Shown piece by piece: positions 36,658 to 59,612 of a stretch of DNA of 61,028 bases (the first letter of the stretch is position 1; the number at the start of each line of letters is the position of its first letter). Position numbers and translations under genes: made by a program. Origin of the DNA: a virus. Location: the UHGV virus genome UHGV-0011871; one strand, 5' to 3'. The notes below the pieces were generated by a model. The model was given only the letters and a program-made list of their open reading frames with translations. It had not been told where the DNA came from and ran no database searches.

Positions 36658-36710
36658 CCTCCCTTACTTACTAATAGACCATTTCAGCCGTTTCGTGGAC
36701 CATGTTTTAC
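36658..36710 (-). promoter_or_regulatory. conserved phage motif, copy A (putative middle/late promoter or operator)
   Basis: 'CCCTTACTTACTAATAGACCA-N14-TGGACCATG' overlaps the RBS of the downstream minus-strand gene. Confidence 0.45.
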
Positions 36711-36875
36711 GATATTTTCCTTGCCGACTCGTTTGAACCGATGCCCATCGTCGTCTCCGTCGTCAAGTTCTATCTCGATGGGGTAGAAGGCGCAGTTCAC
36801 CACGCCTAATACCGTTGCCCATCCTGAGAATAGCGTCGACTCAACGTACACACGGTCGCCTTTTACAGACCGCAA
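36684..36875 (-). CDS. hypothetical protein
   Basis: 63-aa ORF. Confidence 0.3.
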   Translation of the reverse strand: MRSVKGDRVYVESTLFSGWATVLGVVNCAFYPIEIELDDGDDDGHRFKRVGKENIVKHGPRNG

Positions 36876-39313
36876 CGCAGCTGTGCTCCGCAGTTATTAC
36901 ATTCGTGACAGCCTGCTCGTTCGATTACTTCGCCTTGACGGCATACCGGACAATGATCGCCGATGTCAGTACCGAACGTTACCGTATCCTCCAACGGCTT
37001 TACCGGAGCCTCGTACTGGACTTTTACCTCCGCCTCGATGTCTTTGTCTCGGGAGTTCTCTTCGGCTGTCAGCGATAGCACCTGTGCGTCCCTAGAGCCA
37101 TCCACGTAGACAGTTCCACCTTTCGCACCGCCTTTGTACAGCCGCTCGTATACAGCTTGCACTTGCTCGACGGAATAGCCTTTCGGTGCATTTACCGTTT
37201 TACTCAACGAGGAGTCAACGTGCTTCTGAATAGCGTTCTGAACATCCGCATGTGCTTCCGGTGTAAGGGACATCGCTGTGACAAATTCTTTCGGCAGGTT
37301 ATCCGCATCTACGCCCAGTTCCTCTACGATAGCTGCGTTAACTTCCATGAACTTTCCTAGTCGTCCACTGCGGAAGTATTTGAATGCGAAGTACGGCTCT
37401 AGTCCCGTGGATACTCCGACCATTGAACCGGTTGAACCCGTAGGTGCTACCGTCAGTAGGTGAGAGTTACGAATACCGTGCTTCAATACGCCATGCTTCG
37501 TATATGCAGGCATACGTTTCATGTAGCCGGACTCGATGAATCTTTCACGTAGGTCTTGCGTAGATTCCACGTCTTCACCGATTAGGAACGGGAATGAACC
37601 CTTTTCCTTCGCAAGATCGATAGATGTTTGGTAGGCTTCGTGTGCCATTGTTTCGAATACCTTTTCGATCAGTTCGATTGACTCGGGGCTTCCGTACTCG
37701 ATACCGCAGTAAATCAACATGTCAGCGAGGCCCATTACGCCAAGTCCGACACGTCGCTCTCCTAACGCCTGCTTCTCGTTAGCTGGCAGGAAGTACGGAG
37801 TAGAATCGATTACATTGTCCTGCATACGTACGCCCACTCTTACTGTGTTACGTAGCTTTTGGAAGTCGACCTGCTTCGTCTGCTTATTGACCATGTTCGC
37901 AAGGTTAACGGCAGCTAGGTTACATACGGAGTAAGGAGCCAACGGTTGCTCTCCGCACGGATTCGTACATACAACCTTCTGACCGTAGGCACTAGCGTTA
38001 GTTTCGTCATTCGCATTGTCGATGAAGAAGATACCTGGCTCGGCTGCATACGTCGCACAAATATTGACTAACTGCCATAATTGCTTCGCTTTAATCGTGC
38101 GGTACGTTTTAACCGGAAGATGCCATTCTCGCACGTCTCCGACCTCGTGCCATTTAGCGTTGTATTCCGCCATCTGCTCCGGCGAGTAGTTTTCTACGTC
38201 CGGGAAGCGAAGATCGTAGTCGGCATCGGCTTCGACCGCTTCCATAAAGTCTTTCGTAAACGCGACGGAAATGTTTGCGCCGGAAAGGAAGTCCGGATTA
38301 TGGACGGAGTAGTGGCCGCCGTCGTTAAGTAGGTTTTCGGCATATGCTAAGCTATCGTCGGAGATTGCGTGGGTTATGGTCGCTGTCAAAGACTCCTGCT
38401 CAACTACCGATAACGGCGTAAACTTAAGCTTTTGCTGCGCCAAGCTGCGTATTTCCTCGTCGTCCGTAGTCTCGATAATGAAGCGCAAGATTTTCGGATT
38501 CTGCATTTTCGAGATAATGAACTCGAGAATATCGGGATGCCAATCGGCTAGCATTATCATTTGTGCTCCACGTCTGCTACCGCCCTGCTCGACTAGGTGC
38601 GTTAGCTTCGCAATATCATCGAGCCAAGATACAGCACCGGAGGACTTACCGTTTACGCCTCGGGCCAATGCATTGCGTGGACGTAGCGTAGAACCGTTCG
38701 TACCTACACCGCCACCTCGGCTCATGATTTCCATTACTTCGTTACGATGTTCACCGATGCCCTCACGGCTGTCTTTCGGATACGGCATTACGTAGCAATT
38801 GAAGTAGGTTACGTTCTGCTCCGAACCTGCTCCGTAGATTACCCGACCTGCCGGCACGAAGTTAAGATTGACAAGTTCGTGGTAAAAATCGGCTTCGCTT
38901 TCTTTTCGTTTACTTTCGTCTGTCTCGACCGCAGCTAGCCCTCTTGCGTTCCTTTTCGCTATTTGCTCGTAGAACAATTCGAGGGGCTTGTCGACTACTT
39001 TGCGGTGAACCTTGATTTCCTTTCCACCGGCTTGCCCTTCGTACTGCTCTTCGAGTTCTACCGTGATATGGTTGCCCTCGATCTTCGCTACGTTACCGAT
39101 TCCTCTTGCCGGAAAATTCGGGTCAGGATTAATCGTCAGGACGACTAGGTCACCGACTTTCAGCGTGGACAGCTTCGTATCTTTGAATGAGTAACGGTCG
39201 AGCATGATTAGCCTCGACACGCCCTCGAATGTTTTCGTCATATCTTCGGTGATCGGAGCCACCTGCGGAAAGTTCTTTATGTCTTCGTTCAGTTGTTGAA
39301 TATCGAATCTCAA
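36863..39313 (-). CDS. nrdJ: ribonucleotide reductase, class II (adenosylcobalamin-dependent, NrdJ-like)
   Basis: 'NLNFVPAGRVIYGAG' and the 'CTNPCGEQPL' cysteine loop. C-terminal Zn ribbon 'CPVCRQG...CHECNNC'. No NrdB/NrdF partner in the window. TTG start with an AAGGAGGG RBS. Confidence 0.75.
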   Translation of the reverse strand: MRFDIQQLNEDIKNFPQVAPITEDMTKTFEGVSRLIMLDRYSFKDTKLSTLKVGDLVVLTINPDPNFPARGIGNVAKIEGNHITVELEEQYEGQAGGKEIKVHRKVVDKPLELFYEQIAKRNARGLAAVETDESKRKESEADFYHELVNLNFVPAGRVIYGAGSEQNVTYFNCYVMPYPKDSREGIGEHRNEVMEIMSRGGGVGTNGSTLRPRNALARGVNGKSSGAVSWLDDIAKLTHLVEQGGSRRGAQMIMLADWHPDILEFIISKMQNPKILRFIIETTDDEEIRSLAQQKLKFTPLSVVEQESLTATITHAISDDSLAYAENLLNDGGHYSVHNPDFLSGANISVAFTKDFMEAVEADADYDLRFPDVENYSPEQMAEYNAKWHEVGDVREWHLPVKTYRTIKAKQLWQLVNICATYAAEPGIFFIDNANDETNASAYGQKVVCTNPCGEQPLAPYSVCNLAAVNLANMVNKQTKQVDFQKLRNTVRVGVRMQDNVIDSTPYFLPANEKQALGERRVGLGVMGLADMLIYCGIEYGSPESIELIEKVFETMAHEAYQTSIDLAKEKGSFPFLIGEDVESTQDLRERFIESGYMKRMPAYTKHGVLKHGIRNSHLLTVAPTGSTGSMVGVSTGLEPYFAFKYFRSGRLGKFMEVNAAIVEELGVDADNLPKEFVTAMSLTPEAHADVQNAIQKHVDSSLSKTVNAPKGYSVEQVQAVYERLYKGGAKGGTVYVDGSRDAQVLSLTAEENSRDKDIEAEVKVQYEAPVKPLEDTVTFGTDIGDHCPVCRQGEVIERAGCHECNNCGAQLRCGL

Positions 39314-39487
39314 TTAAACGCCCTCCTTTTTGTCGTAACTGCCCTGTTTGATTTGCTTTAACGCTAATAACGTTTGGTCTTCCTCTCGTTCCAGTTCTTC
39401 GAGTCTTAGCCGTGCCTGACGTTGCCTTGCCCGAATGTCTGCGAGTGACGTTTCCAGGCTTTCGATTAACGCTTGCTCTAGGTTCAT
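39314..39487 (-). CDS. hypothetical coiled-coil protein (57 aa)
   Basis: Not in the ORF track. Its stop abuts the RNR TTG start; RBS (GAAGGTGAAG). Confidence 0.3.
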   Translation of the reverse strand: MNLEQALIESLETSLADIRARQRQARLRLEELEREEDQTLLALKQIKQGSYDKKEGV

Positions 39488-39714
39488 TCGGCTTCACCTT
39501 CAATCGCTTCTTTCGGACTGTTTCCGGATAATGCTCCGAATATAAGAGCACCCATGAATAGCCATGCCATTAGTGCCGGTGTACTTGCGAAGTCCACTCG
39601 GATAGCATCGCCAATCACCGGAATAATGTCGACAATCACTCCGAAGAAACTGCCGAGCAACGCCATGAAGATTAAGCCGACGGGAATTACGATTAAATTT
39701 AAAAGGAATCTCAT
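39484..39714 (-). CDS. small membrane protein
   Basis: Three hydrophobic helices. Confidence 0.4.
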   Translation of the reverse strand: MRFLLNLIVIPVGLIFMALLGSFFGVIVDIIPVIGDAIRVDFASTPALMAWLFMGALIFGALSGNSPKEAIEGEAE

Positions 39715-40127
39715 TCGCTTTCCTCCTTCAACGGTTTCTGAATCGTGGCTAGCTTACCGTCCATATCGACAATTTCGTATCCTTCGTCGATAACCATTTG
39801 GATGTCCGTAATTACTACTTGATGTTCGAGGTACTCAGTGCTGTCTACGTCGTGCAAGTGATATGCCACGAGAATGCCTACGACGAACATAGTCAGTCCT
39901 ACGAAAGCCATGAGCCAGTTATCCTCGCCCACCCCGACTATCATATAGAACAGACCTACCGCCATGAGGATTCCCCCGACAAGAATCGCAACTATCCCGA
40001 GTCCGTCCAATGCTGTATACGTTTCAGTCGTTAGAATCTGCATTATATGCTCACCCACTTTGTTATCGTGACTTCTCGCTTCTCTACCTCGTCGATGTCT
40101 GCATCGCCATAGTCTTCGTAATACCAA
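39711..40127 (-). CDS. membrane protein
   Basis: Two TM helices. Confidence 0.4.
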   Translation of the reverse strand: MVLRRLWRCRHRRGREARSHDNKVGEHIMQILTTETYTALDGLGIVAILVGGILMAVGLFYMIVGVGEDNWLMAFVGLTMFVVGILVAYHLHDVDSTEYLEHQVVITDIQMVIDEGYEIVDMDGKLATIQKPLKEESE

Positions 40128-40321
40128 TCCGTGAACGGAGAACCTGACCGAGTAACGTCGGTACGGTAATATTTGACTCCATCCGTGAAGATTACCTCGG
40201 CAGTTTGATATTTACCGTCTTGCTCGAAGTCTCCCTGCTCAGAAAGAAATAAAGTTACACCGTCTACATCGACTTCCCCTTGTCTAAACAGATCGATAAC
40301 TTGCTCGTTAGTTAGTTGCAT
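40043..40321 (-). CDS. hypothetical acidic protein
   Basis: 92-aa ORF. Confidence 0.35.
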   Translation of the reverse strand: MQLTNEQVIDLFRQGEVDVDGVTLFLSEQGDFEQDGKYQTAEVIFTDGVKYYRTDVTRSGSPFTDWYYEDYGDADIDEVEKREVTITKWVSI

Positions 40322-40898
40322 TACTAATCGCCTCCAGGTCGAATTTATTCAGCTTGCCGTGTACATCCGGCATTAAGCCGAGTTGAATCCCATATGCCAA
40401 TGCGATACATACCGCATCTGATTCGTCGTCACGTTTGAACTCTCCGGTGTAGCCGGTTAACTCTCGGACTGCTGTCTCGACTTCGTGCTTCTCCGCCTTC
40501 CCTTTGCCGACAACTAACGTCTTGGCTCGAGACTGCGATACACCATGCGCCTGCTTACGCTTTCCAGTTTTAGTATAGTACACGTATTTGTCGAACTCGT
40601 AGTCATGTGCATGAACGGCTCTTTCGGTAGCTGCCCATGCCGCAAATACGGGGTAATTCTGCTGAGACGACATGCCTTGGAAGTCTTCACGTCCGACATA
40701 GTCGAACTTTCTCCGCTTGTGCTCGTGCATGAAAAGAGTGGCCCACGATTCGACGATTGCGAACCGTAGGGCTAGGGGCTGTGCTGACGAGGTTACTACG
40801 TGGCTTACATCGAGTACTGTCGGCTTGCCTTTCTTGAAGTCTACGAGCGCTGCCCCAGGAGCACCGAGGCTCGTATCGAACGTCAGGATGCGAGTCAT
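40308..40898 (-). CDS. RuvC-like Holliday junction resolvase
   Basis: 'ILTFDTSLGAPGAALVD' is RuvC motif I; the size (196 aa) is consistent. Confidence 0.55.
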   Translation of the reverse strand: MTRILTFDTSLGAPGAALVDFKKGKPTVLDVSHVVTSSAQPLALRFAIVESWATLFMHEHKRRKFDYVGREDFQGMSSQQNYPVFAAWAATERAVHAHDYEFDKYVYYTKTGKRKQAHGVSQSRAKTLVVGKGKAEKHEVETAVRELTGYTGEFKRDDESDAVCIALAYGIQLGLMPDVHGKLNKFDLEAISNATN

Positions 40899-41062
40899 TG
40901 CGTCAGCCTCCCGATCAATAGAGCCGAGTGGTAATTGTCTGTCCGGCTGTACTGCACCTCAACGTCGTACCCGTCTGCCTGCATGTGATTGATTGCTTCT
41001 GATAGTTCGTCGATGAAGTCTGTTTCATATCGAGTGCGGACGAGTAATACTTTTCCGATCAT
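40895..41062 (-). CDS. hypothetical protein (55 aa)
   Basis: Not in the ORF track; ATGA overlap with the RuvC start. Confidence 0.3.
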   Translation of the reverse strand: MIGKVLLVRTRYETDFIDELSEAINHMQADGYDVEVQYSRTDNYHSALLIGRLTQ

Positions 41063-42069
41063 AGGCTATCACGCTCCTCTCGTATCCGTTCGATAGTCCG
41101 CAGGCATTCTGCGTAGGTTTCCTTAATGAACTTCGGCATACCCGAACGCATGACACGGTTCTTCTTACGTCGTATCTCCTCGACCTCTTCGTCAGTCATT
41201 TCCAGTGCGATGATTTTCTTGAACGAGTTAAACGTCCACTTCTCGGGGTCGAGTGCCGGAGGTTCCATATCGTTTACAGCTTCGAGAACTTCGACGAAAT
41301 AATCGAATACCTCTTCCTTGTCCTTCTGAGTAATTTCGATGCCGAACGCTCTAATGTCCGGTGACTTTTCGTACTCACCTTCGGGGTATTCCCACCCTTT
41401 ATGTGCCGTGTTAACGTACAGTACGATGAAGTAGTCAAGATCGAACATTTCAGCGTAACTTACGCATTGCTTAACGTGCTTAATGTCCGGCTCTTTCAAC
41501 GAGTACAGCGATGTCCTAGCTGCTGACGTTTGCTTCGTTTTGATTTCGAGTCCCACTCGGATGATTTCGCCAGTCTCAGGATGTGCGTATTCCATAACAC
41601 CGTCGGTAGCCCCGAACAGATAGAACGACCAATCCTTGTGCTCGACTTTCTTGTTCTTTTTCGAGAACTCCTCGAACATCGGTTGCCCCTTCTTCGTACG
41701 CTCGAAACGGAACCTCGAAGGGAATGAACCCTTTTCAGCGAGGTTACGTTCCATAGCGAGTACCGTACGTTGAATCATGTCACCGACACGAGTACCGATG
41801 TCCTGCCATCTGCCTTGATACGGCGGCTTCCGATCTTCGTCCTTCTCCGCCCTAATCGATTTATAGTAAAGTTCTCGCTGACATGAGTTAGCTGCGGAAG
41901 GTGAGAAGTACGGTCGCTTCGGAAATACATTCGGAGCATCTACATACCATTCGTGAATCTGTGCATCCAGTTCGTTATCCCAAACCTCGGGCAACGAGTA
42001 CCATTCGTCTAGGTGTCGTACAAAATCGTCTGCTACCGCCTGTATGTCTACTTTCGTTGCTTTAGTCAA
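41059..42069 (-). CDS. PD-(D/E)xK recombination exonuclease (YqaJ / lambda-exo-like)
   Basis: 'FSPSAANSCQRELYYKS' ... 'VGLEIKTK' fits the YqaJ-type viral recombinase exonuclease family. Confidence 0.55.
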   Translation of the reverse strand: MTKATKVDIQAVADDFVRHLDEWYSLPEVWDNELDAQIHEWYVDAPNVFPKRPYFSPSAANSCQRELYYKSIRAEKDEDRKPPYQGRWQDIGTRVGDMIQRTVLAMERNLAEKGSFPSRFRFERTKKGQPMFEEFSKKNKKVEHKDWSFYLFGATDGVMEYAHPETGEIIRVGLEIKTKQTSAARTSLYSLKEPDIKHVKQCVSYAEMFDLDYFIVLYVNTAHKGWEYPEGEYEKSPDIRAFGIEITQKDKEEVFDYFVEVLEAVNDMEPPALDPEKWTFNSFKKIIALEMTDEEVEEIRRKKNRVMRSGMPKFIKETYAECLRTIERIREERDSL

Positions 42070-42080
42070 AGAACCACTCC

Positions 42081-42260
42081 TTACTCGTATTTAGTATTCG
42101 TTGTTTTCGTGCTAACTTCGTTGTATTTCGTATCGAAGCGCTCGTAACCCTCACCGTTGAATTGAATGTTGGTTACTGGGCCTTGACCGTTGTACTTCGG
42201 TTGGAATGGCAGTCCGTAACGCTTCGCTTCTGCCCGTCTTTCTCGTCTACTTGCTTTCAC
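42081..42260 (-). CDS. hypothetical basic protein (59 aa, GTG start)
   Basis: An AAGGAGG sits 9 nt upstream of the GTG. Not in the ORF track. Confidence 0.25.
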   Translation of the reverse strand: MKASRRERRAEAKRYGLPFQPKYNGQGPVTNIQFNGEGYERFDTKYNEVSTKTTNTKYE

Positions 42261-42346
42261 TTAGCATCGCCTCCTTAACTGCTTCCGCAGGTGTAATCCC
42301 TGTGAACGTGACTTCTCCGCCTAGGAGCAACGTCGGTACGCATGAA

Positions 42347-42499
42347 CTAGTTCCCCAATTTTCCCTGACGTTTTAATCTCTCGTGGCAGGCGTTACAATA
42401 AACCTTTTCTCCTACCCGTTTTCCGTCATAATACGGAGCCTCGAAACAAACATAGTTACAAACTTCGCATTTCTCATCGAATAAACTCGGTCTACTCAT
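42347..42499 (-). CDS. zinc-ribbon protein (50 aa)
   Basis: 'CEVCNYVC...CNACHERL'; RBS (GAGGGGGG). Not in the ORF track. Confidence 0.3.
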   Translation of the reverse strand: MSRPSLFDEKCEVCNYVCFEAPYYDGKRVGEKVYCNACHERLKRQGKLGN

Positions 42500-42541
42500 A
42501 TCTTAGCCCCCCTCGTTTTTGTTTCGTTAGTTTTCGCATTA

Positions 42542-43801
42542 TTACGCCAATCCTCTCTCTTTAAGTACGGATTGAACCGCCTCTTGCATCGCTTTGACGA
42601 GTGCTTCTTCCAGTGACTCCTCTTCGACTTTCTCGACTTCCCCGACCTTAACGAAGTAATCCGCATCTACATAGTAAGTTTCACCGACTGTACCCGGCAT
42701 AGTCCGATGTTCGAGAACCTTTACTCGGATTTCACCATCGTTGACCTCGATTACTTCTCCTTTTGTCATATCTGCGGTTGTAATTCCGTAGTGTCTCGAA
42801 GATTCGGGAGTTCCCGTTACGATGTCTCCGACTTGTAACTTCGGCTCCTCTTCGATCAACTCGACTTGTTTTTCGCCAATCCATCCGTCCTCTTCGACTC
42901 TCCACGCTGGACCGTAATCGGTAGTATCAAAGTCAGGTAGACGTTCTTTCAGTGTGTAAATACTGCCAGTACGGATGCCACGTACTTTGTCGCCTGCTTT
43001 TAGTTTTGCGAAATCGGCTTCCTCGACGATGTCCTCGGCTTTCCTTTCAAGTAACTCGACTTCGAAGTCTCTAATCGGTCGATCGTTTTCCTCGACGAAG
43101 AATCTGCCGTCGTCCTCGGAGGCAATCTCAGAAATCGTAAGGACATCGCCATTAGCGTACTGACCTTCCGTGCCGAAAGCGCTGACGACTTTTACTTTAT
43201 CTCCGACTTGCGGACGGAGTTTATCATCGTACTTTCTAGTGGTAGGCCCGACTAGCTTGACTTGGTCTTCGCCAACCCATCCGAACGAATACTCCTCTAC
43301 TGACCATGCGGCTCCGTAATCACCGTCCACATCCTTCCGACGTGCTTTCAACGTGAATACCTCGCCATCCATTAACGATGCGACCTTGTCTCCGACTTTA
43401 AATCTCGCAATGTCTACTAACTCGAAGTGTTTCGCATCTACGTAGTAAGTTGCACCAACTTCGTGCGGCATCGTTTTATGCTCGAGAACCTTTACTCGGA
43501 TGTCTCCGTGGTAGACCTCGATTACTTTACCCTTCGTCATGTCTTCGTCCGTGATGTAATATGGAGCGCCTTCCGTTGCAGTAACGATGTCTCCGACTTT
43601 GAACGGATTTACTGGACGGAGGCTAGTCGCATCTGCGTAACCTCTACGGTCGCCTTTATAAACTGCGTAGCTGTCGGGTCTTGTCTGAGGTATATATGAC
43701 GGGTAATCACCGATTACAACCTCGTCTCCGACTTCAAATCCGCCCAATGTAGATTCCAGTTTCGTAATTACCGCTTTGTCACCTTTTTTAAATTTCGCCA
43801 T
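42542..43801 (-). CDS. KVGD-repeat protein (internal-repeat, SH3/KOW-like modules)
   Basis: About eight '(F/L)KVGDxV' modules. The N- and C-terminal ~60 aa are near-duplicates ('VGDIVTATEGAPYYITDEDMTKGKVIEVYHGDIRVKVLEH' versus 'VGDIVTGTPESSRHYGITTADMTKGEVIEVNDGEIRVKVLEH'). Confidence 0.5.
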   Translation of the reverse strand: MAKFKKGDKAVITKLESTLGGFEVGDEVVIGDYPSYIPQTRPDSYAVYKGDRRGYADATSLRPVNPFKVGDIVTATEGAPYYITDEDMTKGKVIEVYHGDIRVKVLEHKTMPHEVGATYYVDAKHFELVDIARFKVGDKVASLMDGEVFTLKARRKDVDGDYGAAWSVEEYSFGWVGEDQVKLVGPTTRKYDDKLRPQVGDKVKVVSAFGTEGQYANGDVLTISEIASEDDGRFFVEENDRPIRDFEVELLERKAEDIVEEADFAKLKAGDKVRGIRTGSIYTLKERLPDFDTTDYGPAWRVEEDGWIGEKQVELIEEEPKLQVGDIVTGTPESSRHYGITTADMTKGEVIEVNDGEIRVKVLEHRTMPGTVGETYYVDADYFVKVGEVEKVEEESLEEALVKAMQEAVQSVLKERGLA

Positions 43802-43838
43802 TTAATATCGCTCCCTCGAGGCTTTCCGCCCGTTATTT

Positions 43839-50015: not shown

Positions 50016-50485
50016 TACGCACCCACCCCGTAATGTTCGGCTGCCTTCTTCACGTCTACGATTTCGACCTTGATGGACTCTTTAATGTCGATGGCTTCCG
50101 TTAACTTTCGTTTTAAATCGTCTTTGATTTTAGGATTACGTGCTTTCAGCATGTTCAGCGTGATTTCCGCAACTTTAATTTCTGCCTTACGAAACTCTCG
50201 TTCCTTGGTTTTCAGTATTTTCGTTACTTCCTTTGCGAGTTTACCTTTGAGTCGCTCCATGATCGGCTTCTCGTCGTACAAAGGTCTGACCGTTACTACT
50301 CTAATTCCGTCCAATATGATTTCAACGCCAGGAGCACGATATACTTTCTTATGACCATCGTTGCGGAGAAATTTACCTCGCGAAATCTTATCGTTAATCC
50401 AAGAAACTGCGACATCTTTCGATACGATATTGTAACGTTGTCTTAAACGTTCTTTTGCGTGTGCCGTGATATGGTACTCAATCAT
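50015..50485 (-). CDS. hypothetical basic protein
   Basis: 156-aa ORF; translationally coupled. Confidence 0.4.
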   Translation of the reverse strand: MIEYHITAHAKERLRQRYNIVSKDVAVSWINDKISRGKFLRNDGHKKVYRAPGVEIILDGIRVVTVRPLYDEKPIMERLKGKLAKEVTKILKTKEREFRKAEIKVAEITLNMLKARNPKIKDDLKRKLTEAIDIKESIKVEIVDVKKAAEHYGVGA

Positions 50486-50607
50486 GCTAATCTCCGCCCT
50501 TTCACCGTAATATTAATGTAATTCAGAATGTCCTCGTCTGCCGGAACCTCGCCGTGATAAATGAAGTCCGGTTGAGTTAACGTTAGGTCTTCGTGTAAGT
50601 TCGTCAT
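50482..50607 (-). CDS. hypothetical small protein (41 aa)
   Basis: RBS (AAGGAGCG); TGA/ATG overlap with the downstream gene. Not in the ORF track. Confidence 0.25.
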   Translation of the reverse strand: MTNLHEDLTLTQPDFIYHGEVPADEDILNYINITVKGRRLA

Positions 50608-50734: not shown

Positions 50735-51316
50735 TTACACCGTTTCATACGAAAGTATGTTACGGCACTCGGTTTTGAAGCGCTTTATGAAGCTGCGATG
50801 TCCAGTCGCTTTTCCTCCGTATAACTGCGCCAACAGTTCGGAGATAGCCAAGTCTTCGGAGCCTTTCGACCATTGTAATAGGATAGTCTCTCTCCGGGGG
50901 TCACCTTGCGCCAACTCGGTGACTCTTTCCGTAAATGCTACTTCCGATTCTACATCGGAGTTTGATTTAAACTGGAAGCCGAGGTTATCATCGCCTCCGT
51001 CTCCTTCGAGAGTAGTCATTGAAACGTAATTTCCGTTCTTTCGACTATCTCTCCTTATGAATCGAGCCTTACTTAGCGAAATCTGAGTCTTGACTCCTGA
51101 GATAAAATCGTGCTTTCCGTATTCGAAATTATCCATTAATCTCTTAATCTCACGAACTACTCGGCAGTCAAACTTAGTGAAATCGTCAAGGTAAGGTTCG
51201 ACTTCTCGGGACGCTTGCTCGATCATCGGGTTAATGAAGTCGAACAAGTTAGCCATTGCCGTTTCGTCTCCGTTTTGGTACGCCAATACCAATGAGTTAA
51301 TTTGTGCTTTATTCAA
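50735..51316 (-). CDS. phage-encoded sigma factor-like protein (sigma-70 regions 2 and 4)
   Basis: 'AQINSLVLAYQNGDETAMANLFDFINPMIEQASRE' is region 2.1-2.2-like. 'DPRRETILLQWSKGSEDLAISELLAQLYGG' is region 4-like. TTG start with an AAGGAGAAG RBS. Confidence 0.5.
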   Translation of the reverse strand: MNKAQINSLVLAYQNGDETAMANLFDFINPMIEQASREVEPYLDDFTKFDCRVVREIKRLMDNFEYGKHDFISGVKTQISLSKARFIRRDSRKNGNYVSMTTLEGDGGDDNLGFQFKSNSDVESEVAFTERVTELAQGDPRRETILLQWSKGSEDLAISELLAQLYGGKATGHRSFIKRFKTECRNILSYETV

Positions 51317-51342
51317 TTATCATCTTCTCCTTTTACGTTTTT

Positions 51343-51395: not shown

Positions 51396-51522
51396 AATTT
51401 TTGTAAGTTTTTTTATTTGTGCCTTACACTTACGATAATACAGTATTTAATGTATGTTCGTAATGAGGCAAATAGACTATTTTACCGAAATAATTTATAG
51501 GACTAAAGGAGGATGTACGTTC

Positions 51523-51747
51523 GTGATTTCGTATAAACCACTGAAACTGACGCTAGTACACAAGGGAATGACCATGACCGATCTTGACGCTGTTAAAGGT
51601 GGGCCGTTAAACACACGGACGGTTTCGAAACTTCGGCACGATGAAACTATGAATCTCGAGTCTATCGTTAAAATATGTAAGTTCCTCGACTGTCCTATCG
51701 AGGATGTCGTCGAGGTTATTCTTGATGCAGAAGGTTCCGAAGATTGA
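51523..51747 (+). CDS. XRE/Cro-like HTH regulator
   Basis: GTG start 9 nt after an AAAGGAGGA. 'ISYKPLKLTLVHKGMTMTDLDAVKGGPLNTRTVSKLRHDETMNLESIVKICKFLDC' is a typical small phage HTH. Confidence 0.55.
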   Translation: MISYKPLKLTLVHKGMTMTDLDAVKGGPLNTRTVSKLRHDETMNLESIVKICKFLDCPIEDVVEVILDAEGSED

Positions 51748-52651: not shown

Positions 52652-52706
52652 TTTCACACCGCCTTCCATTTAATTACTTTTATTTCAATAAACTTACTTT
52701 TATTGG

Positions 52707-54095
52707 TTAGAACTGGGAGGCGATTGCCATAGCTTCACTTTCGTCTAGCGTAATTTCCTGTATGATTCCATACTGCGGAAGGTAGATTATTTCAGCGAAT
52801 TGGCCTTCTCCACCGTCACGTCCCTTGCTTAGACCTACGAGTCCTCGACCTTCGAGGTAATTCGTATCGACTCCGATCAATAACGCAGCATCCTGCAATA
52901 GCTGTTTCGTTTTGCTGACTTCCTTACGTTTAGGCAGGCGTAACTCTCGATTGCCGTCTTCGTCCTCTGCTTCCTCTGTTTCATCTGCTTGCGTAATCGC
53001 TAGTACAGTTACGTCAGTCGTACCGGCTAGCCTACGTAGCTTCTTCGAGGTATTCTCAGCGTCTCCGCCCGTCTTCTTAGATGTGTTTGCTTCATAGTCG
53101 AGATAGTAGAACGGGTCGATCAGCACCACGTCAGCTTCCGTCTGAATGATTTCGGCTTCCAGTGCTCGCAATGATCGCTCAGTAAAGTCGTGGTCGTCTA
53201 CGCCCCTTACGATGATGTTTCCGGCTAGCGTGTCGTTAATGTTACGTACGAACTCGAAGAACTTTTCTTCGAAGTCCTCAGGCAATTTACCTTGTCGCAT
53301 GTCCCTCGAATTAAAGCCCACGTCCATATCTACACCGTTGATTTCCGCAGTAGCCACGTCTCCGACTGCCTGCGATAGCATCGTAAAGATACGAACAAGC
53401 ACCTCGTACCATCCCATTTCCATCGACCATATCAGAACGTTAGCGCCCTGCATCGCTAGATTAAGAGCCTCACGTAACGCTACTGCCGACTTACCTCGAC
53501 CTGACTTACCGTAGATAACGTACACGTTCGATGATACATAGCCGCCCGTTGCACTGTTAATCTTCGGCAGGAACGAATCCCATACTTTGTACGTCTCGCC
53601 TTTCTTGCGATTCTCGTATTCTTCGAGGATTCTCTCGGAGTCGTGTTTCACGTCGGTTCCTAGCTTACCTCGAACACCTGTTCTCATTTTAACATTTTGA
53701 AGTTCCTCTATCAACAAATCAATGGCAACATTTCCATCTTTTTCATTTAGGATGTCTTCGAACGTCGGTTTCGTCGGCTTGCCCCGATCATCCGGCTTAC
53801 CTTCGAGAATGTCGATGATTCCCTTCTTAGCTGCGAATGATTTTAACTCCTGGACCATATATCGGTAGCTGTCCGTAACTCCCTCACGGTAATAGAAGTC
53901 GGGATATTTCTCGACAACTGTCCGGTAGTCAGGCGTTTGGTGCTTATTTGATTTCGAATACTCGATGATGAAATCGTACACGTCACGCTCGGCTTTGGTC
54001 GGGAAGTCCGAACGGTCAACGTTGAACTCCCGAATAGCCATCGTATTGCCATCGTCTAATACTCGTGATAGAAACTGCTCTCCGTAGTTTGGCAT
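52707..54095 (-). CDS. replicative DNA helicase (DnaB-like)
   Basis: Walker A 'GKSGRGKSAVAL'; a RecA-like C-terminal domain; 'LAGTTDVTVLAITQ'. Confidence 0.7.
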   Translation of the reverse strand: MPNYGEQFLSRVLDDGNTMAIREFNVDRSDFPTKAERDVYDFIIEYSKSNKHQTPDYRTVVEKYPDFYYREGVTDSYRYMVQELKSFAAKKGIIDILEGKPDDRGKPTKPTFEDILNEKDGNVAIDLLIEELQNVKMRTGVRGKLGTDVKHDSERILEEYENRKKGETYKVWDSFLPKINSATGGYVSSNVYVIYGKSGRGKSAVALREALNLAMQGANVLIWSMEMGWYEVLVRIFTMLSQAVGDVATAEINGVDMDVGFNSRDMRQGKLPEDFEEKFFEFVRNINDTLAGNIIVRGVDDHDFTERSLRALEAEIIQTEADVVLIDPFYYLDYEANTSKKTGGDAENTSKKLRRLAGTTDVTVLAITQADETEEAEDEDGNRELRLPKRKEVSKTKQLLQDAALLIGVDTNYLEGRGLVGLSKGRDGGEGQFAEIIYLPQYGIIQEITLDESEAMAIASQF

Positions 54096-54186
54096 CTATT
54101 TAACGCCTCCTTATTTGTTATCCTGTTTGTACAGCCACCATCCGAGCGCAATGCCGGCAGCTATCATGCCCCCGAGAATAAGTGCA

Positions 54187-54417
54187 TCATCCGTCATGCT
54201 CCGGCACCTCCCGTAGTAATTGGAAGTTCAGTATGACTACGGTGTATACTTCGTCGTAATCCTCCCGATGTTTTTCTGCAATAGTCTGCATAACACCCGT
54301 CAATGCTTCCGACGAGTCGATTTTATATGACGTAGACATAACCACGTTTCCGAACCCGTTGTCTCCACTACTCTTTGACGATGCGTGGTACGATACGAAA
54401 TAATTGTATTTATTCAT
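54187..54417 (-). CDS. hypothetical protein
   Basis: 76-aa ORF. Confidence 0.35.
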   Translation of the reverse strand: MNKYNYFVSYHASSKSSGDNGFGNVVMSTSYKIDSSEALTGVMQTIAEKHREDYDEVYTVVILNFQLLREVPEHDG

Positions 54418-55143
54418 CGTAAATCACTCTCCTTCGGTTGTAGTACCGGACGTATACCGTTTAGTTCTCCGCCTGCCTTGCGAATCTCCGTACCTGCATC
54501 GAACATCGCTTGCTCGTACCTGTACAGCTTCATTACCTGCTCGGCATCCTCGAGGTTGTCTTCCTTTACATGCTCGTTATATAAGTCCAATAACTCGTCT
54601 GCTCGTCGTGCCCATTCTTTCCTACGTGCGATTTCCGCCTTCTCCGACGCTCGATGACCTTTCTTCATGGTCGATTCCTCCCTTTTGTTTTCGATGGTTT
54701 CCGGGGCATCCTTAACATTTCCTTTCGTCATGAACGGGAACTCAGGTTTCGCTAGCCAATCTTCGCCATACCATTCTCCGTCACCTTCCAGTAGGTATCG
54801 ATAGCATCTGTCCTCTTCGTCCCACTTGAGGTCTTCAATCTCGAAGTACAACGGGGAACCGTCGAAGTCATAGTCGACAAAGTCGTCAGTGTACGGGCTG
54901 AACGTTACTACCATTTCACCGACTGAGAATAACGGGCCGTCGTCTTCATCGTCTTCATCCGTTTCGTACACCAACTCAGCTTCATCCTCGTCTTCGTCCG
55001 CACCTATCCATTCGAAGTTATCGAGTCTCCTCGGCACGGTTGCGTACTTAGGCTCCTGCGATGCTTCTTTCATCTTCCTCGCTACGTAAAACGCTGTGAC
55101 TGCCGACGCTATGCTTGTAATTCCGATCTTCAACTTTTTCATG
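54414..55143 (-). CDS. membrane-anchored acidic protein
   Basis: N-terminal TM helix; start at MKKLKIG with a GGGGAGGG RBS; acidic repeats. Confidence 0.4.
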
Positions 55144-55359
55144 ATAACCCTCCCCAACGAATATAGGTGACCACTTGCCGTCGTCTGCCTGCTTGTATTT
55201 GACTCGGCATCCGCACGTTACGCAACGGATAACCGGTCGGCCCATGACTTGATACGACTCAATATACTGTTCTGCTGCTTTCACTCGGCTGTACCTCAGT
55301 CCGTGATACCGATAAGATGCTTCGGCGGCACACGAGAAACACTGGGATTCTATCGTCAC
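55048..55359 (-). CDS. Cys4 zinc-ribbon protein (GTG start)
   Basis: 'CFSC...CVTCGC'; RBS (AGAGGGGG). Overlaps the next gene by ~95 nt in another frame. Confidence 0.3.
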   Translation of the reverse strand: MTIESQCFSCAAEASYRYHGLRYSRVKAAEQYIESYQVMGRPVIRCVTCGCRVKYKQADDGKWSPIFVGEGYHEKVEDRNYKHSVGSHSVLRSEEDERSIAGA

Positions 55360-56144
55360 TTCCTACGCCCCCTCTTTGATTCGCCTGTAAAGTGGAAGTC
55401 CTGCGTCATGTCCTTAATCCGATCGGCTAACCGTTCTTCACCGAATACTTCCGGCAGTTCATCCAATGACAGGTTCGACGTGTAAATCGTAGGCAATTCG
55501 TTCGTCACTCGATAGTTAATAACGCTATGCAGGTCACTTCGAAATCCATCGGTTGTCGACCGTGTACCTACGTCGTCTATGACTACGAACGGAGTATGCT
55601 TCGCCTTCTCAATCGCTTGGTAGTATTTCTGAGCCGCAGGTTCCCCGATATGGTCAGGCACCTTCGGTCTGTTAAACGTCGTGTAGTCCGTCTGCAATGC
55701 GTTTGCATCTAGGAAGAAGCCTGGACGTTGCATCGGCGTTATCTTCCGTTTAAGGTGACCGATGTAACTGCGGAGAATCCATTCGTTTAGCAACGCACTA
55801 GCCGTCGTTGTCTTGCCCGTTCCAGGCGACTCAGACCACAAGTACAGCGATTTAATTTGTATTTCATCGTCTGACTGCCCTTGCTCCCGTAACTCCTCGA
55901 TTACATCGTCGAATTGCTTATCGAACGACTTTACGTAAGTTTCCAATGCCTTATATGTCTTTGCCTGCGATTCCCTGACGGGAGAGTCAGCGAGTAGAAC
56001 CCCGTGATAGTCCTTCGGGATTCCGGCTGCTCCTACCCGTCCGCCTTTGCCGTTGACACCGTGGAGTCCGATGTACAACGGGTTCATAGGTGAACATAAA
56101 TCCTTGCCGTTTAGGTTACGCAATACGCATTTCTTTTGGCTCAT
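55356..56144 (-). CDS. DnaC/DnaI-like helicase loader (AAA+)
   Basis: Walker A 'SPGTGKTTTASAL'; Walker B 'FVVIDDVG'. Confidence 0.65.
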   Translation of the reverse strand: MSQKKCVLRNLNGKDLCSPMNPLYIGLHGVNGKGGRVGAAGIPKDYHGVLLADSPVRESQAKTYKALETYVKSFDKQFDDVIEELREQGQSDDEIQIKSLYLWSESPGTGKTTTASALLNEWILRSYIGHLKRKITPMQRPGFFLDANALQTDYTTFNRPKVPDHIGEPAAQKYYQAIEKAKHTPFVVIDDVGTRSTTDGFRSDLHSVINYRVTNELPTIYTSNLSLDELPEVFGEERLADRIKDMTQDFHFTGESKRGRRK

Positions 56145-56162
56145 TCCGTAGCCACCTTTCGT

Positions 56163-57119
56163 TTAGTATCGTGCCGAATCGTCTAATACTACTAAGAAGT
56201 TGCTTGGATTAGATAGGTTGGCACTCGCCTTGAATCCGGCATCGTCAATATGGCACTTGACGCACGTCAGGTTACTATTCACCTTATCTAATCGATCAAC
56301 TCGATAGTTTACTTTTCCATGCCACGCATCATACTCAGGGAACGTGATTATATCGCCTACTTGAAAGCCCGTAGGTTTTGGTGCGTTTAGCAGATACTCC
56401 GGTACTTCCTTGCCCAATGCTCGGTACAATGCGATAGCCTTGCCGATGTGCTCGTTAAAGCAATCCGTCGGGTCACACTTAGCAATACCTTTTCCTCGTA
56501 TCTTGTTCGTATTAATTCCTCGCATGAGAGCGACTACTACTCTCTTTTCACGGTTGACGATGAACTCGACTTTAGTGACGTGGACTGAATGTATTTCTAC
56601 ATCGAATGGAATCCGGTAATACCCGTCAATGCCCTTCAATCCTTCGATAGCTAATTTCGCCTGCTTAACTACCACGTCTCGACTGTACTGCGGACTATCG
56701 CTTTTCGGCGGACTAATACTTTCTTGCTGTATCGTACCTTCTTCGAGCCTACGTTTCAGTTCCGCAAGTAACTCGTCATTGTTAACGGATGCTAGCGAAG
56801 ATGTCTCCGGTTCTTTCAAGTGACCGATACCTTTCAGTCCGTCTTCTCCGATTAAGAATTGATCGCCTTGCAGCGTTTCACATACGTAGACTGTATCGTA
56901 CTGGGTTCCGTGATTCCCTTTCGCTAGGACTCTCACCATCTTACCCTCTAAGTCGTAAGCATTGACAGTATCGTTATTGAAGAATCCCTCCGACGCTGCG
57001 TTCGGATATCCGGCTACTTCTGCGAATTTAGTGTACGATGAGTATTGCTGACCTCCGTCGATTACCGTTGCCGTTAGTCCCAGGTGCTCCAAGTTTTCCA
57101 CACGAATTTTTCTAGCCAT
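56163..57119 (-). CDS. hypothetical replication-module protein
   Basis: 318 aa, between the replisome organiser and the loader. Confidence 0.4.
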   Translation of the reverse strand: MARKIRVENLEHLGLTATVIDGGQQYSSYTKFAEVAGYPNAASEGFFNNDTVNAYDLEGKMVRVLAKGNHGTQYDTVYVCETLQGDQFLIGEDGLKGIGHLKEPETSSLASVNNDELLAELKRRLEEGTIQQESISPPKSDSPQYSRDVVVKQAKLAIEGLKGIDGYYRIPFDVEIHSVHVTKVEFIVNREKRVVVALMRGINTNKIRGKGIAKCDPTDCFNEHIGKAIALYRALGKEVPEYLLNAPKPTGFQVGDIITFPEYDAWHGKVNYRVDRLDKVNSNLTCVKCHIDDAGFKASANLSNPSNFLVVLDDSARY

Positions 57120-57155
57120 TTAACATCGCTCCATTTCGTTTAATTTTCGTTTTCC

Positions 57156-57539
57156 CTACCGTTGACTCTCGACATCCAGTAACGCTCGTATTTCCCCGTT
57201 AAAATCACGGATTTCATCGAGTAATTCCTTTAAAGTAGTCGCCTCACTGTCCCGAACCTTCTGCTCTCCGATCGACACGATGGCTTTCGCTACCGTTGAA
57301 TGATACGATACCTCTCGCCAACTTTCCCGAGGTGACGGGTCTGCCCCTTTCTCTTCAAGCTGTTTCCAGTTAGGAGATTTCGTCGGGTCGGTCATATACA
57401 TTCTCTCGACTATTACGTTTCGAGTATCGGACTTGATGCGGAACTCTTCACTTACTTGTATCAACATCATCCATCGCTCCATTTCGTTTAATTTTCGTTT
57501 ATAATCGGCACACTTACCTACGGAAGCCATCCGTCCCAT
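57156..57539 (-). CDS. hypothetical protein
   Basis: 127-aa ORF. Confidence 0.35.
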   Translation of the reverse strand: MGRMASVGKCADYKRKLNEMERWMMLIQVSEEFRIKSDTRNVIVERMYMTDPTKSPNWKQLEEKGADPSPRESWREVSYHSTVAKAIVSIGEQKVRDSEATTLKELLDEIRDFNGEIRALLDVESQR

Positions 57540-57721
57540 TCCATCGGTTTATCAATCGTAACTTTGATGGTCTTAGTGTGCGTTACTTCCTTTTTGGTTA
57601 CCGCATGTCTCAGCGATTGCACTTCGGCTCGGAGCATGGAGACTTCGAACTGAGTGTCTTCCAGTTCTCGAATAATTTTCCGAAGTTTCACGGAGTCAGT
57701 ACCCCTCCTTTTCCAAAACAC
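57518..57721 (-). CDS. hypothetical coiled-coil protein
   Basis: 67-aa ORF. Confidence 0.3.
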   Translation of the reverse strand: MFWKRRGTDSVKLRKIIRELEDTQFEVSMLRAEVQSLRHAVTKKEVTHTKTIKVTIDKPMEWDGWLP

Positions 57722-57742
57722 TTTACCGCCTCCATTTCGTTT

Positions 57743-58141
57743 TTAGAACCACCCCTCGTCTACTTCGGTTTCTTCGGCTTGCTTTGCAGCTTCCTCACGT
57801 TTCTTCTGTTTGCGTAACTCCACCTCGGCCCGTGCCATGTTATCTCGCATATATGACCACATGAAGCCGAATGACAACGTCGGGAAGTCGGGATTAAAGC
57901 GATGCGAGTCGAAGCACTTGTCGATGAACGCTTTAGTCGCTTCGTTGCCGTGCTTTGTAATCGCCTGCTTTAGCTGCCCTTTTTCGGTTGACCATCGTTT
58001 GCTTATCGAACCTCTTCCGAATGGCACGTAATCTGCGTTGTAATCTTCACGGTTGCGGTCGATCAGGTAAGCGTGGAATGTAGTTACGTTCCAATCTTCG
58101 ACTGCCCTCGCTTTCCAATCGCTTGCTTTCGTTCTTGGCAT
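57743..58141 (-). CDS. hypothetical protein
   Basis: 132-aa ORF. Confidence 0.4.
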   Translation of the reverse strand: MPRTKASDWKARAVEDWNVTTFHAYLIDRNREDYNADYVPFGRGSISKRWSTEKGQLKQAITKHGNEATKAFIDKCFDSHRFNPDFPTLSFGFMWSYMRDNMARAEVELRKQKKREEAAKQAEETEVDEGWF

Positions 58142-58506
58142 TACTTAGTCGCCCCCTTGATAACGTCCATGATTTCTTTGATAGCGTAATACTCAGGATT
58201 CATTACTTTCATGATTGCGTCTCCCACATCGACAAAAGCGAATACACTAACGAATATTAAAACTATACATCCGATAACCGCAACGTAGTTGGCTATACAC
58301 TCGTAATCAAAGTCGGATTTCTTTACAGCGACACCTACGACAATTCCGAGGACTAAATATACGACTCCGAACATAATCAGCGTTGTAACTCCTTCGGCTA
58401 CCTGCTGTCTGACGAGTATCCCGTAAACATGCTCCGCAGCTACGCCCAGGCTTGACGCTAGTGTCTCGATGTACTCCGTTGCTTTTTCGTATACCTTCTC
58501 TTTCAT
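58141..58506 (-). CDS. membrane protein (3 TM)
   Basis: Hydrophobic helices. Confidence 0.4.
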   Translation of the reverse strand: MKEKVYEKATEYIETLASSLGVAAEHVYGILVRQQVAEGVTTLIMFGVVYLVLGIVVGVAVKKSDFDYECIANYVAVIGCIVLIFVSVFAFVDVGDAIMKVMNPEYYAIKEIMDVIKGATK

Positions 58507-58886
58507 TATGCGTTCACCCCTTCGATCTTCATTCCGAGTGCATCGATGGTTCTCTCTATCCCACGACTAACTCCTCGGTAGTAAGGAACATTGTTACTTC
58601 CGAAGTCCGACATCATATATTCCCTACTTATTTCCTTATATAATGCTTGCACCCTTTCCTCCGGCGACTTCTCGATTTCATATCCGACATACAATGCGGT
58701 AATGAAATCATCGAGAGGTATATCGGATGCTGCTCGTAACTCGGGGTCACTCCATCCGCCTTTTACGTGCTCCGTAACTAGCGTAGACCTAGTTACCTCG
58801 ATGTCTTCGTCTGTCCATATATAAAGCAGTTCATCGAGTGCCTTCGCCTGGCTCCGGTCTAATGTAACTTTTCCTATTTTCCCCAT
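58506..58886 (-). CDS. hypothetical protein
   Basis: 126-aa ORF. Confidence 0.4.
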   Translation of the reverse strand: MGKIGKVTLDRSQAKALDELLYIWTDEDIEVTRSTLVTEHVKGGWSDPELRAASDIPLDDFITALYVGYEIEKSPEERVQALYKEISREYMMSDFGSNNVPYYRGVSRGIERTIDALGMKIEGVNA

Positions 58887-59011
58887 TCTTCGCTTCCTCC
58901 TTTAAATGTAACTGTTAGGTTACGTGCATCCATAATTTCTTTTACGTCCTCTTCACAAATGCCTGCCGAGCGAATCGCTTCAAAAAAGTCCTCTAATGCG
59001 TCTACCTTCAT
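58876..59011 (-). CDS. hypothetical small protein (45 aa)
   Basis: RBS (AAGGAGGA). Not in the ORF track. Uses the duplicated RBS cassette. Confidence 0.25.
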
Positions 59012-59171
59012 TCTTCGCTTCCTCCTTTATATTCGGTAGAATTGTTTGCGTATATCTATTTGCATGTTCTTGCGTAAGCAAGGTTATGCGTGAGTGTTAA
59101 CGAACTGCCCGTAAAGGTTTTTAAAGTCTAGTTAAGTAAGTATAGTTAATACAGTTTAGTTCGTCTTCACC

Positions 59172-59546
59172 TCATGCAGTACCCTCTTCATACTGTGAAG
59201 TACCTACTTCATCGATTGCAGTACCCTCTACGAACCATTTCGGCGGTTCATACAGTTCGTACTCATTCGATAGGTTACGAGTGCCTTTCTTCCTGACCGT
59301 AACTCCGATCAGTTCTAACTCCTGTAATCGCTTTAGTGCTGCCCGTACTGAGTTTTCCGAACATCGACACTTACCGGCGATTGTCTTTACACTCGGATGC
59401 GACTTAGTTGTAGTGTTATCTGCGTACATACAAAGCGTTGCATAAACGAGTTTTTCGACTGGCTTCTCGATGTATACTTCGTCGTCCATGACGGCTCTCG
59501 TCATTCTAACGAATCGCATGTCGTCGAAGTTTATTCGCTTTTTCAC
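59172..59546 (-). CDS. winged-helix replisome-organiser-like protein (N-terminal domain)
   Basis: 'LVYATLCMYADNTTTKSHPSVKTIAGKCRCSENSVRAALKRLQELELI' resembles phage replication-initiation N-terminal domains. GTG start 6 nt after an AGGAGG. Confidence 0.45.
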   Translation of the reverse strand: MKKRINFDDMRFVRMTRAVMDDEVYIEKPVEKLVYATLCMYADNTTTKSHPSVKTIAGKCRCSENSVRAALKRLQELELIGVTVRKKGTRNLSNEYELYEPPKWFVEGTAIDEVGTSQYEEGTA

Positions 59547-59564
59547 GAGCAACCTCCTTTCGTT

Positions 59565-59612
59565 CCTTACACTTACTAATAGACCAAAATGTTCATTTCG
59601 TGGACCACGATT
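59565..59612 (-). promoter_or_regulatory. conserved phage motif, copy D
   Basis: Same motif, 5 nt from the RBS of the replisome-organiser gene. Confidence 0.45.

Follow-up and report, generated by a model that had tools for sequence, protein, structure and literature searches.

A bipartite element repeated along the genome of a temperate phage is probably a promoter read by a phage-encoded, ECF-like sigma factor

The repeated element and its genomic setting

The viral genome UHGV-0011871, analysed here as a single stretch of 61,028 nucleotides (nt) that we refer to as the window, carries four sense-oriented copies of a bipartite element, TGGTCCAC-N14-GGTCTATTAGTAAGTGTAAGG, on its minus strand, which is the gene-sense strand, and one of these copies lies directly upstream of a gene for a 193-aa sigma-like protein (Table 1). 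Read on that strand, each copy begins with an A-rich stretch, which is followed by TGGTCCAC, 14 variable nt and GGTCTATTAGTAAGTGTAAGG. The first-pass annotation, made from the letters of the window, had reported four plus-strand occurrences with a fixed internal spacing, and these are indeed present within 3 nt of where it had placed them and with exactly 14 nt between the two parts in every one. It had also judged the element to be unlike a sigmaA -35/-10 arrangement, in agreement with a generic sigma-70 scan that calls none of the four copies.

The 22-mer CCTTACACTTACTAATAGACCA has three exact occurrences on the plus strand as opposed to none in 100 shuffles, and a repeat finder likewise groups the element as family D3, with four 54-nt copies at 36660, 43840, 51344 and 59565. 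Furthermore, a profile hidden Markov model (HMM) trained on 28 instances in other genomes, the window being left out of the training set, recovers exactly the four copies, all on the minus strand (E from 4.7e-10 to 8.8e-08), the next-best match in the window having E = 0.11. Copy A is degenerate at its 3' end, where it has GTAAGTAAGGGA in place of the GTAAGTGTAAGG of the other copies, and it also reads CATGGTCCACG and has CA instead of CG before its box. The last ~14 nt of the element are found once more at 51420-51453, but this partial fifth copy is part of a separate sigmaA-type promoter, P1 (repeat family D6). An 11-bp perfect palindrome, CGTGGTCCACG, had been singled out as a feature of the element together with a direct repeat of GACCA; the palindrome is perfect in copies B and D and is lacking in copy A, in copy C, which reads CGTGGTCCACA, and in those relatives that have TGTCCCAC, while the direct repeat is not conserved by the relatives. 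Since the relatives keep neither the 9-11-bp palindrome nor the GGTCCA/GGTCTA direct repeat, both have been set aside as functional features.

Copy D is followed by a ribosome-binding site and the start of the HTH_36 replication-initiator gene 18 nt later, and this gene heads a block with a helicase-loader-like gene, DnaB and primase. Copy C lies 27 nt before the start codon of the sigma-like gene. Copy B overlaps the stop codon of PolA and is followed by a 419-aa open reading frame (ORF), a 336-aa ORF without known family, RuvC and ribonucleotide reductase (RNR), and copy A overlaps the stop codon of a 63-aa ORF after RNR, with a 62-aa ORF next and PhoH, dUTPase, ThyX, HNH endonucleases and a C5 methylase behind it. 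A true intergenic location is found for copies D and C only. Because copies A and B overlap stop codons and the scan gave no terminator-like site just upstream of either, they are to be regarded as internal promoters of one long co-directional array, and the earlier notion of four separate leftward transcription units is therefore only partly right, as these two copies do not mark the starts of insulated units.

The minus-strand order, read leftward, is integrase with terminator, the copy D block, the divergent XRE gene, P1, copy C, the 193-aa ORF with the genes up to PolA, then copy B and copy A, and the array ends with a 112-aa protein that has a sigma-70 region 4 only. The late genes (terS, terL, portal, tape measure, Dit and tail) occupy positions 1-19330. 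Sigma70-like sites are depleted in the region 28-44.5 kb, where 7 are found and 17.5 +/- 4.1 are expected. No match to an RNA polymerase gene was obtained among 30 ORFs of the window (including all those of at least 450 aa except the DnaB-family gene 52707-54095, which was assigned from the gene call of a relative), the large ORFs being tail, tape-measure, portal, terminase, PolA, RNR and C5 methylase genes, and the candidate of a T7-like or other phage RNA polymerase promoter was rejected since none of these 30 ORFs matched.

Table 1. Coordinates of the element copies and of the genes and promoter discussed in the text
Feature	Position	Strand	Details
Copy D, whole element	59613-59562	-	-35-like box 59607-59600; block 59585-59565; profile E 8.8e-08
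Copy C, whole element	51392-51341	-	-35-like box 51386-51379; block 51364-51344; profile E 4.7e-10
Copy B, whole element	43888-43837	-	-35-like box 43882-43875; block 43860-43840; profile E 9.7e-10
Copy A, whole element	36708-36657	-	-35-like box 36702-36695; block 36680-36660; profile E 1.3e-08
193-aa ECF-like sigma factor, proposed reader of the element	50735..51316	-	structure and profile comparison
P1, candidate sigmaA-type promoter TTACGA-N17-TATTAT	51435..51463	-	sequence and conservation only
Divergent XRE/HTH_26 gene	51454..51747	+	domain match
HTH_36 / replication-initiation (RepO/DnaD-like) protein	59172..59552	-	first gene behind copy D
112-aa sigma-70 region-4-only protein	28155-28493	-	Pfam Sigma70_r4 4.7e-08; phrog_3512
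Integrase	59939-60997	-	marks the phage as temperate

The element in related phages and prophages

Relatives were compared by way of the genomic context of 12 close homologues and six further loci from IMG/VR and JGI metagenomes, and in 18 related phage or prophage contigs with a visible box the bipartite element is again found at the syntenic positions. Its register is rigid, since the distance between the TG of the box and AAGT is exactly 33 nt in 33 of 33 instances from 16 contigs, and all of them are in gene sense. The spacer varies and the boxes are constant within a genome, but between genomes the boxes differ: the upstream box is either TGGTCCAC (GGTCC) or TGTCCCAC (GTCCC), the downstream block is either (N)4TATTAGTAAGT or TTGGTTCATATAAGTGTA, and all four combinations of the two exist. 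In every locus in which the region is present the sigma-like gene has the element ~60-75 nt ahead of its start, the equivalent of copy C is there in every relative inspected, and where the flanks reach far enough there are also copies before the HTH_36 gene and immediately after PolA.

Two of the homologue loci, on a contig of Bacillus sp. 7894-2 and on one of Rossellomorea marisflavi, have flanking genes that look chromosomal, and this suggests that the two are prophages. More distant relatives are found in isolated phages. Bacillus phage KLEB27-1 has a homologue that is 31% identical and annotated as 'RNA polymerase sigma factor', and its genome contains three copies of AATGTCCCGAT-N9-CCRCATGCGACTGTA (motif AATGTCCCGAT...GCGACTGTA), one before the HTH_36 gene, one before the sigma gene and a third further downstream before gp75, with none after PolA. 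Sporosarcina phage Lietuvens likewise has three copies, of TGTCCCAA-N14-TCCGCATATATAATAGG (also given as TGTCCCAA-N14-TCCGCATATATAA), which are located before the HTH gene, before the sigma homologue and right after PolA.

In a Rossellomorea prophage (IMGVR_UViG_2936463923_000002) there is a weaker copy, the fourth of that prophage, on the minus strand at 3741-3784 (GTGGTCCAC...TTGGTTCAAGTAAGT, E 3e-4), and its 3' end is degenerate like that of copy A of the window. Searches by nucleotide sequence gave little: megablast of 9 kb of the window against GenBank phages returned no match, the exact 22-mer does not occur in IMG/VR, a 15-mer scan of genome contigs gave chance matches only and the full motif in none of them, a 15-mer being too short, and an 18-mer scan gave one chance match (L144) in addition to the already known Rossellomorea prophage. 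A gapped scan of IMG/VR with CCAC-N16-20-TATTAGTAAGTG gave 69 stretches, of which a single one, L204, is a profile-confirmed copy.

A two-domain sigma-like protein

The gene behind copy C encodes a protein with a sigma2-like four-helix N-terminal domain (residues 1-94), an acidic disordered linker (95-119) and a sigma4-like four-helix C-terminal domain (122-192), the recognition helix of which comprises residues 170-192. The AlphaFold2 model (pLDDT 78) has the two four-helix domains with the disordered acidic linker between them, and the top Foldseek matches of this model are sigmaE, AlgU and sigma32. The protein thus combines sigma2 and sigma4 helical domains through a linker and has neither sigma1.1 nor sigma3. 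Twenty closer homologues are 53-71% identical to it, and an exhaustive profile search among 1.84 billion representatives describes a small discrete family of 177 clusters at 50% identity (E <= 1e-3). A family profile of 139 sequences furthermore aligns end to end with AlgU, SigW and SigH of the Protein Data Bank (PDB) at E 1.4-1.9e-4.

The sigma relationship came to light only through structure and this wide family profile. Indeed a search of PDB sequences with a narrow profile gave nothing significant, the protein has no match in Pfam or NCBIfam (Sigma70_r2/r4/ECF, TIGR02937), its PHROG match is of unknown function only, and a few members of the family have sub-threshold matches to Sigma70_r2 and HTH_16 and nothing better. 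Since no curated model matches and AlgU and SigW are reached at E ~1.5e-4, the protein is best described as a remote relative of the extracytoplasmic function (ECF) sigma factors and not as a member of a curated ECF group. Directly after the sigma gene there is a conserved 41-53-aa ORF, found in the window (50482-50607, minus strand) and in the gene calls of nine relatives (for instance at 10710-10835 of L122); no family could be assigned to it, and its product might act as an anti-sigma or a partner protein.

Co-variation of the protein with its proposed promoter

Eighteen sigma-like proteins were aligned and labelled by box type, the -35 comparison being between 7 GGTCC and 9 GTCCC genomes. 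Residue 171 is the sole column that separates all GGTCC from all GTCCC genomes, with T in the former and E, D or S in the latter. Without the outlier L136 the separating columns are 171, 172, 175 and 178, reading TG..S..K as opposed to ES..K..Q/T/L, and these are all located at the start of the last helix with none in the N-terminal domain. The TATTAGT and CATATAAGT types of -10 block are separated by 18 columns, all of which are within residues 27-96. Among them, the loop that joins helices 3 and 4 has a two-residue indel at 63-64 and changes at 66-69. This is the position of the specificity loop by which ECF sigma factors read a flipped -10 base (PMC6411747).

The sigma gene is furthermore mosaic: the protein of L139 has a type-2 N-terminal domain and a C-terminal domain nearly identical to that of the window, and its promoter has the matching hybrid boxes. 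In a blind test the box types of four further relatives were predicted from the protein before the DNA was viewed, and the predictions were right for both boxes in all four. The distant proteins of KLEB27-1 (EAHRKFIRRF) and Lietuvens (ETHRKSILRF) likewise go with GTCCC boxes and agree with the helix rule. As a control, the XRE protein, the product of a divergent gene tightly linked to the sigma gene, was compared as well, and its helix-turn-helix (HTH) is GGPLNTRTVSKLR whichever of the four box combinations a genome has.

The variable positions can also be related to a known complex. In an HMM alignment to AlgU (helix VRSRIFR), R174, S/K175, K/Q178 and R179 of the phage family correspond to R171, S172, F175 and R176 of sigmaE, which in the crystal structure of sigmaE4 with -35 DNA contact -31', -34, -33' and -35, respectively (PMC1540707), and S/T at sigmaE position 172 is correlated with G/A at -34 (PMC1540707). 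When G-(G/T)-(T/C)-C-C is set on GGAAC, the variable bases fall at -34 and -33, opposite the variable residues 175 and 178, and the invariant G at -35 and C at -31 fall opposite the invariant arginines R179 and R174. The natural variants hence amount to a compact specificity code, in which T/G/S/K or E/S/K/Q at 171, 172, 175 and 178 goes with GGTCC or GTCCC, and this code matches the sigmaE-DNA structure.

Interpretation of the element as a sigma-specific promoter

We consider it very probable that the four elements are promoters read by the host core RNA polymerase in complex with the phage's own two-domain ECF-like sigma factor. Features of an ECF-type promoter that are found here are bipartite boxes at invariant spacing on the sense strand, co-variation with the protein and an autoregulatory copy; a promoter ahead of the own gene is typical of ECF sigma factors, and copy C, being directly upstream of the sigma-like gene, can be considered such a promoter. 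The C-terminal sigma4-like domain would read the upstream box, G(G/T)(T/C)CCAC, as a -35 element, and the N-terminal sigma2-like domain would read the downstream block as -10 after the rigid spacer. If the G of the box is set at -35, GTCTAT of the window comes to lie at about -13 to -8, and it is the likely approximate -10 sequence; transcription would then start in the invariant TAAGTG, ~35 nt past the first G of the box. The sigmaE promoter consensus, GGAACTT-N15-GTCAAA, has the same geometry as the element of the window. A different assignment, with GAAAC as the ECF-style -35, was rejected, as copy C does not contain this sequence and no more than 10 nt separate it from GTCTA. RNA polymerase binding, start site and timing are what we infer from the sequence family, its synteny and rigid register, the sigma fold and the domain-by-box co-variation.

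P1, located ~78 nt upstream of copy C, may supply the first sigma factor. It is recognisable in the upstream regions of 13 of 16 relatives, some of which have better hexamers (TTTACA-N17-TATAAT in L133), with equivalents in L124-L141, and its spacer contains an inverted repeat (e.g. ATACA-N9-TGTAT), which makes it a likely operator of the divergent XRE gene product. To judge from relatives, which are called at 74-75 aa, the true start of the XRE gene is probably close to 51523, and its protein is a candidate repressor acting at P1 and not at the element. In the proposed circuit, host sigmaA RNA polymerase would make the first sigma factor from P1, probably under control of XRE, and this would then activate its own gene through copy C in a positive feedback. 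Copy D would drive the replication-initiation, helicase and primase block, copy B the recombination and RNR genes, and copy A the genes for PhoH, dUTPase, ThyX and the methylase. 

Several points weigh against this interpretation. The protein fails all curated sigma models of Pfam and NCBIfam and its link to the ECF factors is only at E ~1e-4. Paenibacillus phage Halcyone has a syntenic homologue (gp50) but no convincing repeated motif, and L136 (JACYYJ010137252.1, 760-825) has the helix SGHRSFIKRF, which is of the GGTCC type save for a change of T to S, and yet its box, TGTCCCAC, is of the GTCCC type; this exception may mean that residue 171 dominates. All compared sequences are furthermore phylogenetically related, and the -10 contrast comes from what are essentially two protein clades, so that few independent events may lie behind it. 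Sequence alone fixes neither the exact -10 hexamer nor the start site. Finally, sigma recognition does not explain why P1, a promoter of sigmaA type, also has GTAAGTGTAAGG, the 3' part of the element; the shared stretch may represent a leader common to both, a preference of the core polymerase or the site of a separate protein.

Alternative explanations

The resemblance to P1 is also the starting point for the notion that the element is a sigmaA promoter with a poor -35 box, switched on by the 193-aa protein as a DNA-bound activator with a sigma fold. Indeed P1 reads TATTAT-CGTAAGTGTAAGG in its -10 and start region, much like TATTAG-TAAGTGTAAGG of the downstream block, the start-proximal CGTAAGTGTAAGG being common to P1 and the sigma-specific promoters, type-2 relatives contain TATAAG, and co-variation means that the protein reads the DNA without being proof that it replaces sigmaA. 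However, neither block type contains a hexamer with A at position 2 plus T at position 6, the sigma-70 scan mentioned above passes over all four copies, and the protein has both sigma2- and sigma4-like domains, each of which co-varies with its own half-site at a rigid, ECF-like spacing. Reading of the -10 region by way of a sigma2 fold is not what would be expected of an activator, and we consider this explanation distinctly unlikely.

Of the readings offered by the first-pass annotation, a promoter recognised by the sigma-like protein has held up: the sigma fold implied by its label is found both by structure and by profile, the two half-motifs co-vary with the two domains as also borne out by the blind predictions, and the motif travels with the gene, as it had been proposed to check, in every relative that could be inspected, including the distant KLEB27-1 and Lietuvens. 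The other reading, an operator through which a lysogeny repressor, be it XRE or another HTH protein, silences all replication operons together, draws on the palindrome of copies B and D and on the integrase of a temperate phage, and a repressor acting on both kinds of promoter is possible for the asymmetric sub-part GTAAGTGTAAGG that the motif has in common with P1. It is nevertheless in poor agreement with the absence of the palindrome from copies A and C and from the TGTCCCAC relatives, with the lack of conservation of the direct repeat, and with the fact that each of the 33 instances is locked to one strand and keeps a constant distance from the gene start; the box variation follows the sigma-like protein, whereas the HTH of XRE is invariant across all four box combinations. 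An operator function of the element is thus very unlikely. The probability is slight, too, that the element is recognised by the ArpU/RinA-like 112-aa protein, the alternative reader named at the outset, even though this has a clear Sigma70_r4 domain (4.7e-08) and its best PHROG, phrog_3512, is annotated as 'sigma factor'. Having no sigma2 domain, it cannot explain a bipartite element of which the 193-aa protein accounts for both boxes, nothing in the evidence links it to the motif, and its gene is found at the far end of the copy A array, before a convergent block toward the late genes, which is the usual place of a late activator. Hardly any probability, lastly, is left for the view that the repeats are module-boundary sequences kept by recombination among mosaic phages and without a role in transcription; the copies do occur at junctions of functional modules and the sigma gene is visibly mosaic, but recombination scars would not keep bipartite register, strand, position relative to start codons and domain co-variation across 16 or more genomes.

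The element may contain a second layer that does not depend on the sigma factor, although we regard this as a rather doubtful, tentative proposal. The stretch (C/A)GTAAGTGTAAGG near the start is common to P1 and the motif, and TAAGT is the only part of the downstream block that is invariant across both -10 types. Under this proposal all early-middle transcripts would begin with the same leader, and one phage factor could use this leader as an RNA handle, or its DNA as an asymmetric site of the 'stoperator' kind, to silence or stabilise the whole regulon in lysogens.

Other features of the genome

To all appearances the window is a complete phage genome that is circularly permuted. In a metagenome scaffold of 61,083 bp, which exceeds the window by 55 nt and has an identical sigma-like protein and the same gene order, a 261-aa amidase gene is found 407 nt before the integrase gene; the amidase gene of the window (287-1072) precedes the integrase gene at the same distance only across the end-to-start junction (1 / 61028).

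The sole plus-strand gene block (~20.4-28.1 kb), which is convergent on the minus-strand array, is headed by five near-identical strong sigmaA-type promoters at 20431-20800 and 24157-24191 on the plus strand, of the form AAAAAGTTGTTGACACGA-N-GAGTCGATGCTAcAAT (TTGACA-N17-TAnnnT), four of which are in tandem ~105-120 nt apart. This block is probably the immediate-early region. Between terS and these promoters there is ~1.1 kb of non-coding DNA (19330-20400) dense in short repeats of the AACGGTTT and CAACGTTTGCAGCGTTT type, including repeat family D11 at 19554, 20000 and 20254, and is a possible location of a pac/cos site, an origin or late-promoter sites. The 112-aa region-4-only protein, last gene of the array, is a plausible activator of the late genes, and with such a candidate the phage may run a two-step cascade of sigma-like proteins.

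Repeats are also present within genes. A 9-nt periodic repeat at 14823-14984, in a small minus-strand ORF of the structural region (14726-15151), appears to encode a collagen-like Gly-X-Y stretch if the presumed reading frame is right, three tandem ~180-nt repeats are found at 3184-3740 inside the gene of a 901-aa tail protein, and at 42652-43547 a 125-nt segment is duplicated 771 nt apart within the 419-aa ORF behind copy B.

Relation to known systems

ECF (group 4) sigma factors such as E. coli sigmaE, P. aeruginosa AlgU and B. subtilis SigW likewise consist of sigma2, linker and sigma4 in ~190 aa, and the likeness extends to a bipartite promoter with stringent boxes and a rigid spacer, to a promoter ahead of the own gene, and to the recognition helix, in which R174/R179 and the variable 175/178 align with R171, R176, S172 and F175 of sigmaE and the box lines up with GGAAC. 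The phage protein differs from them in being below the thresholds of curated models and in being phage-borne, no anti-sigma has been recognised for it so far, its -35 box lacks the AAC core, and its regulon is one of replication and nucleotide metabolism and not of envelope stress.

Among phage factors, SPO1 gp28 and gp33/34 and T4 gp55 belong to virulent phages, serve middle or late genes and have unrelated promoter sequences, and T4 gp55 is moreover without sigma4 and reads no -35 box. The present phage is in contrast temperate, its sigma factor has both domains and its regulon is the replication module. Phage-encoded sigma factors with private promoters are as such a classic theme, exemplified by SPO1 gp28 and gp34 and T4 gp55 (PMC9429907). 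Activators of the RinA/ArpU/LtrC type and Xpf of PBSX are likewise small sigma-related phage proteins that switch on a gene block, RinA being described in PMC3152322, but the RinA/ArpU/LtrC type acts at one promoter upstream of the packaging and late operon, whereas the motif described here occurs in four copies, is confined to the replication and nucleotide-metabolism half of the genome and has a full two-domain sigma factor as its reader. No description of the sigma family or of the motif was found in the searchable literature; the type of control is known, and the sigma family is one that standard databases do not recognise.

Implications

This family would go unnoticed in surveys that look for phage sigma factors with curated models (e.g. 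PMC9429907), and the present analysis provides a function for proteins that are called hypothetical almost everywhere. More tentatively, members of the family would be natural, specificity-swapped orthogonal pairs of sigma factor and promoter, in which recombination of sigma2 and sigma4 modules would go along with a concerted, genome-wide change of promoters. Pairs of sigma factor and promoter from this family could serve as orthogonal parts for Bacillus engineering. As apparent lysogens exist among isolate genomes (Rossellomorea marisflavi and Bacillus sp. 7894-2), the prediction is directly testable. For the biology of these viruses, the findings suggest that a group of temperate Bacillaceae phages has placed its replication and nucleotide-metabolism genes on a private, self-amplifying sigma circuit instead of on sigmaA promoters or antitermination.

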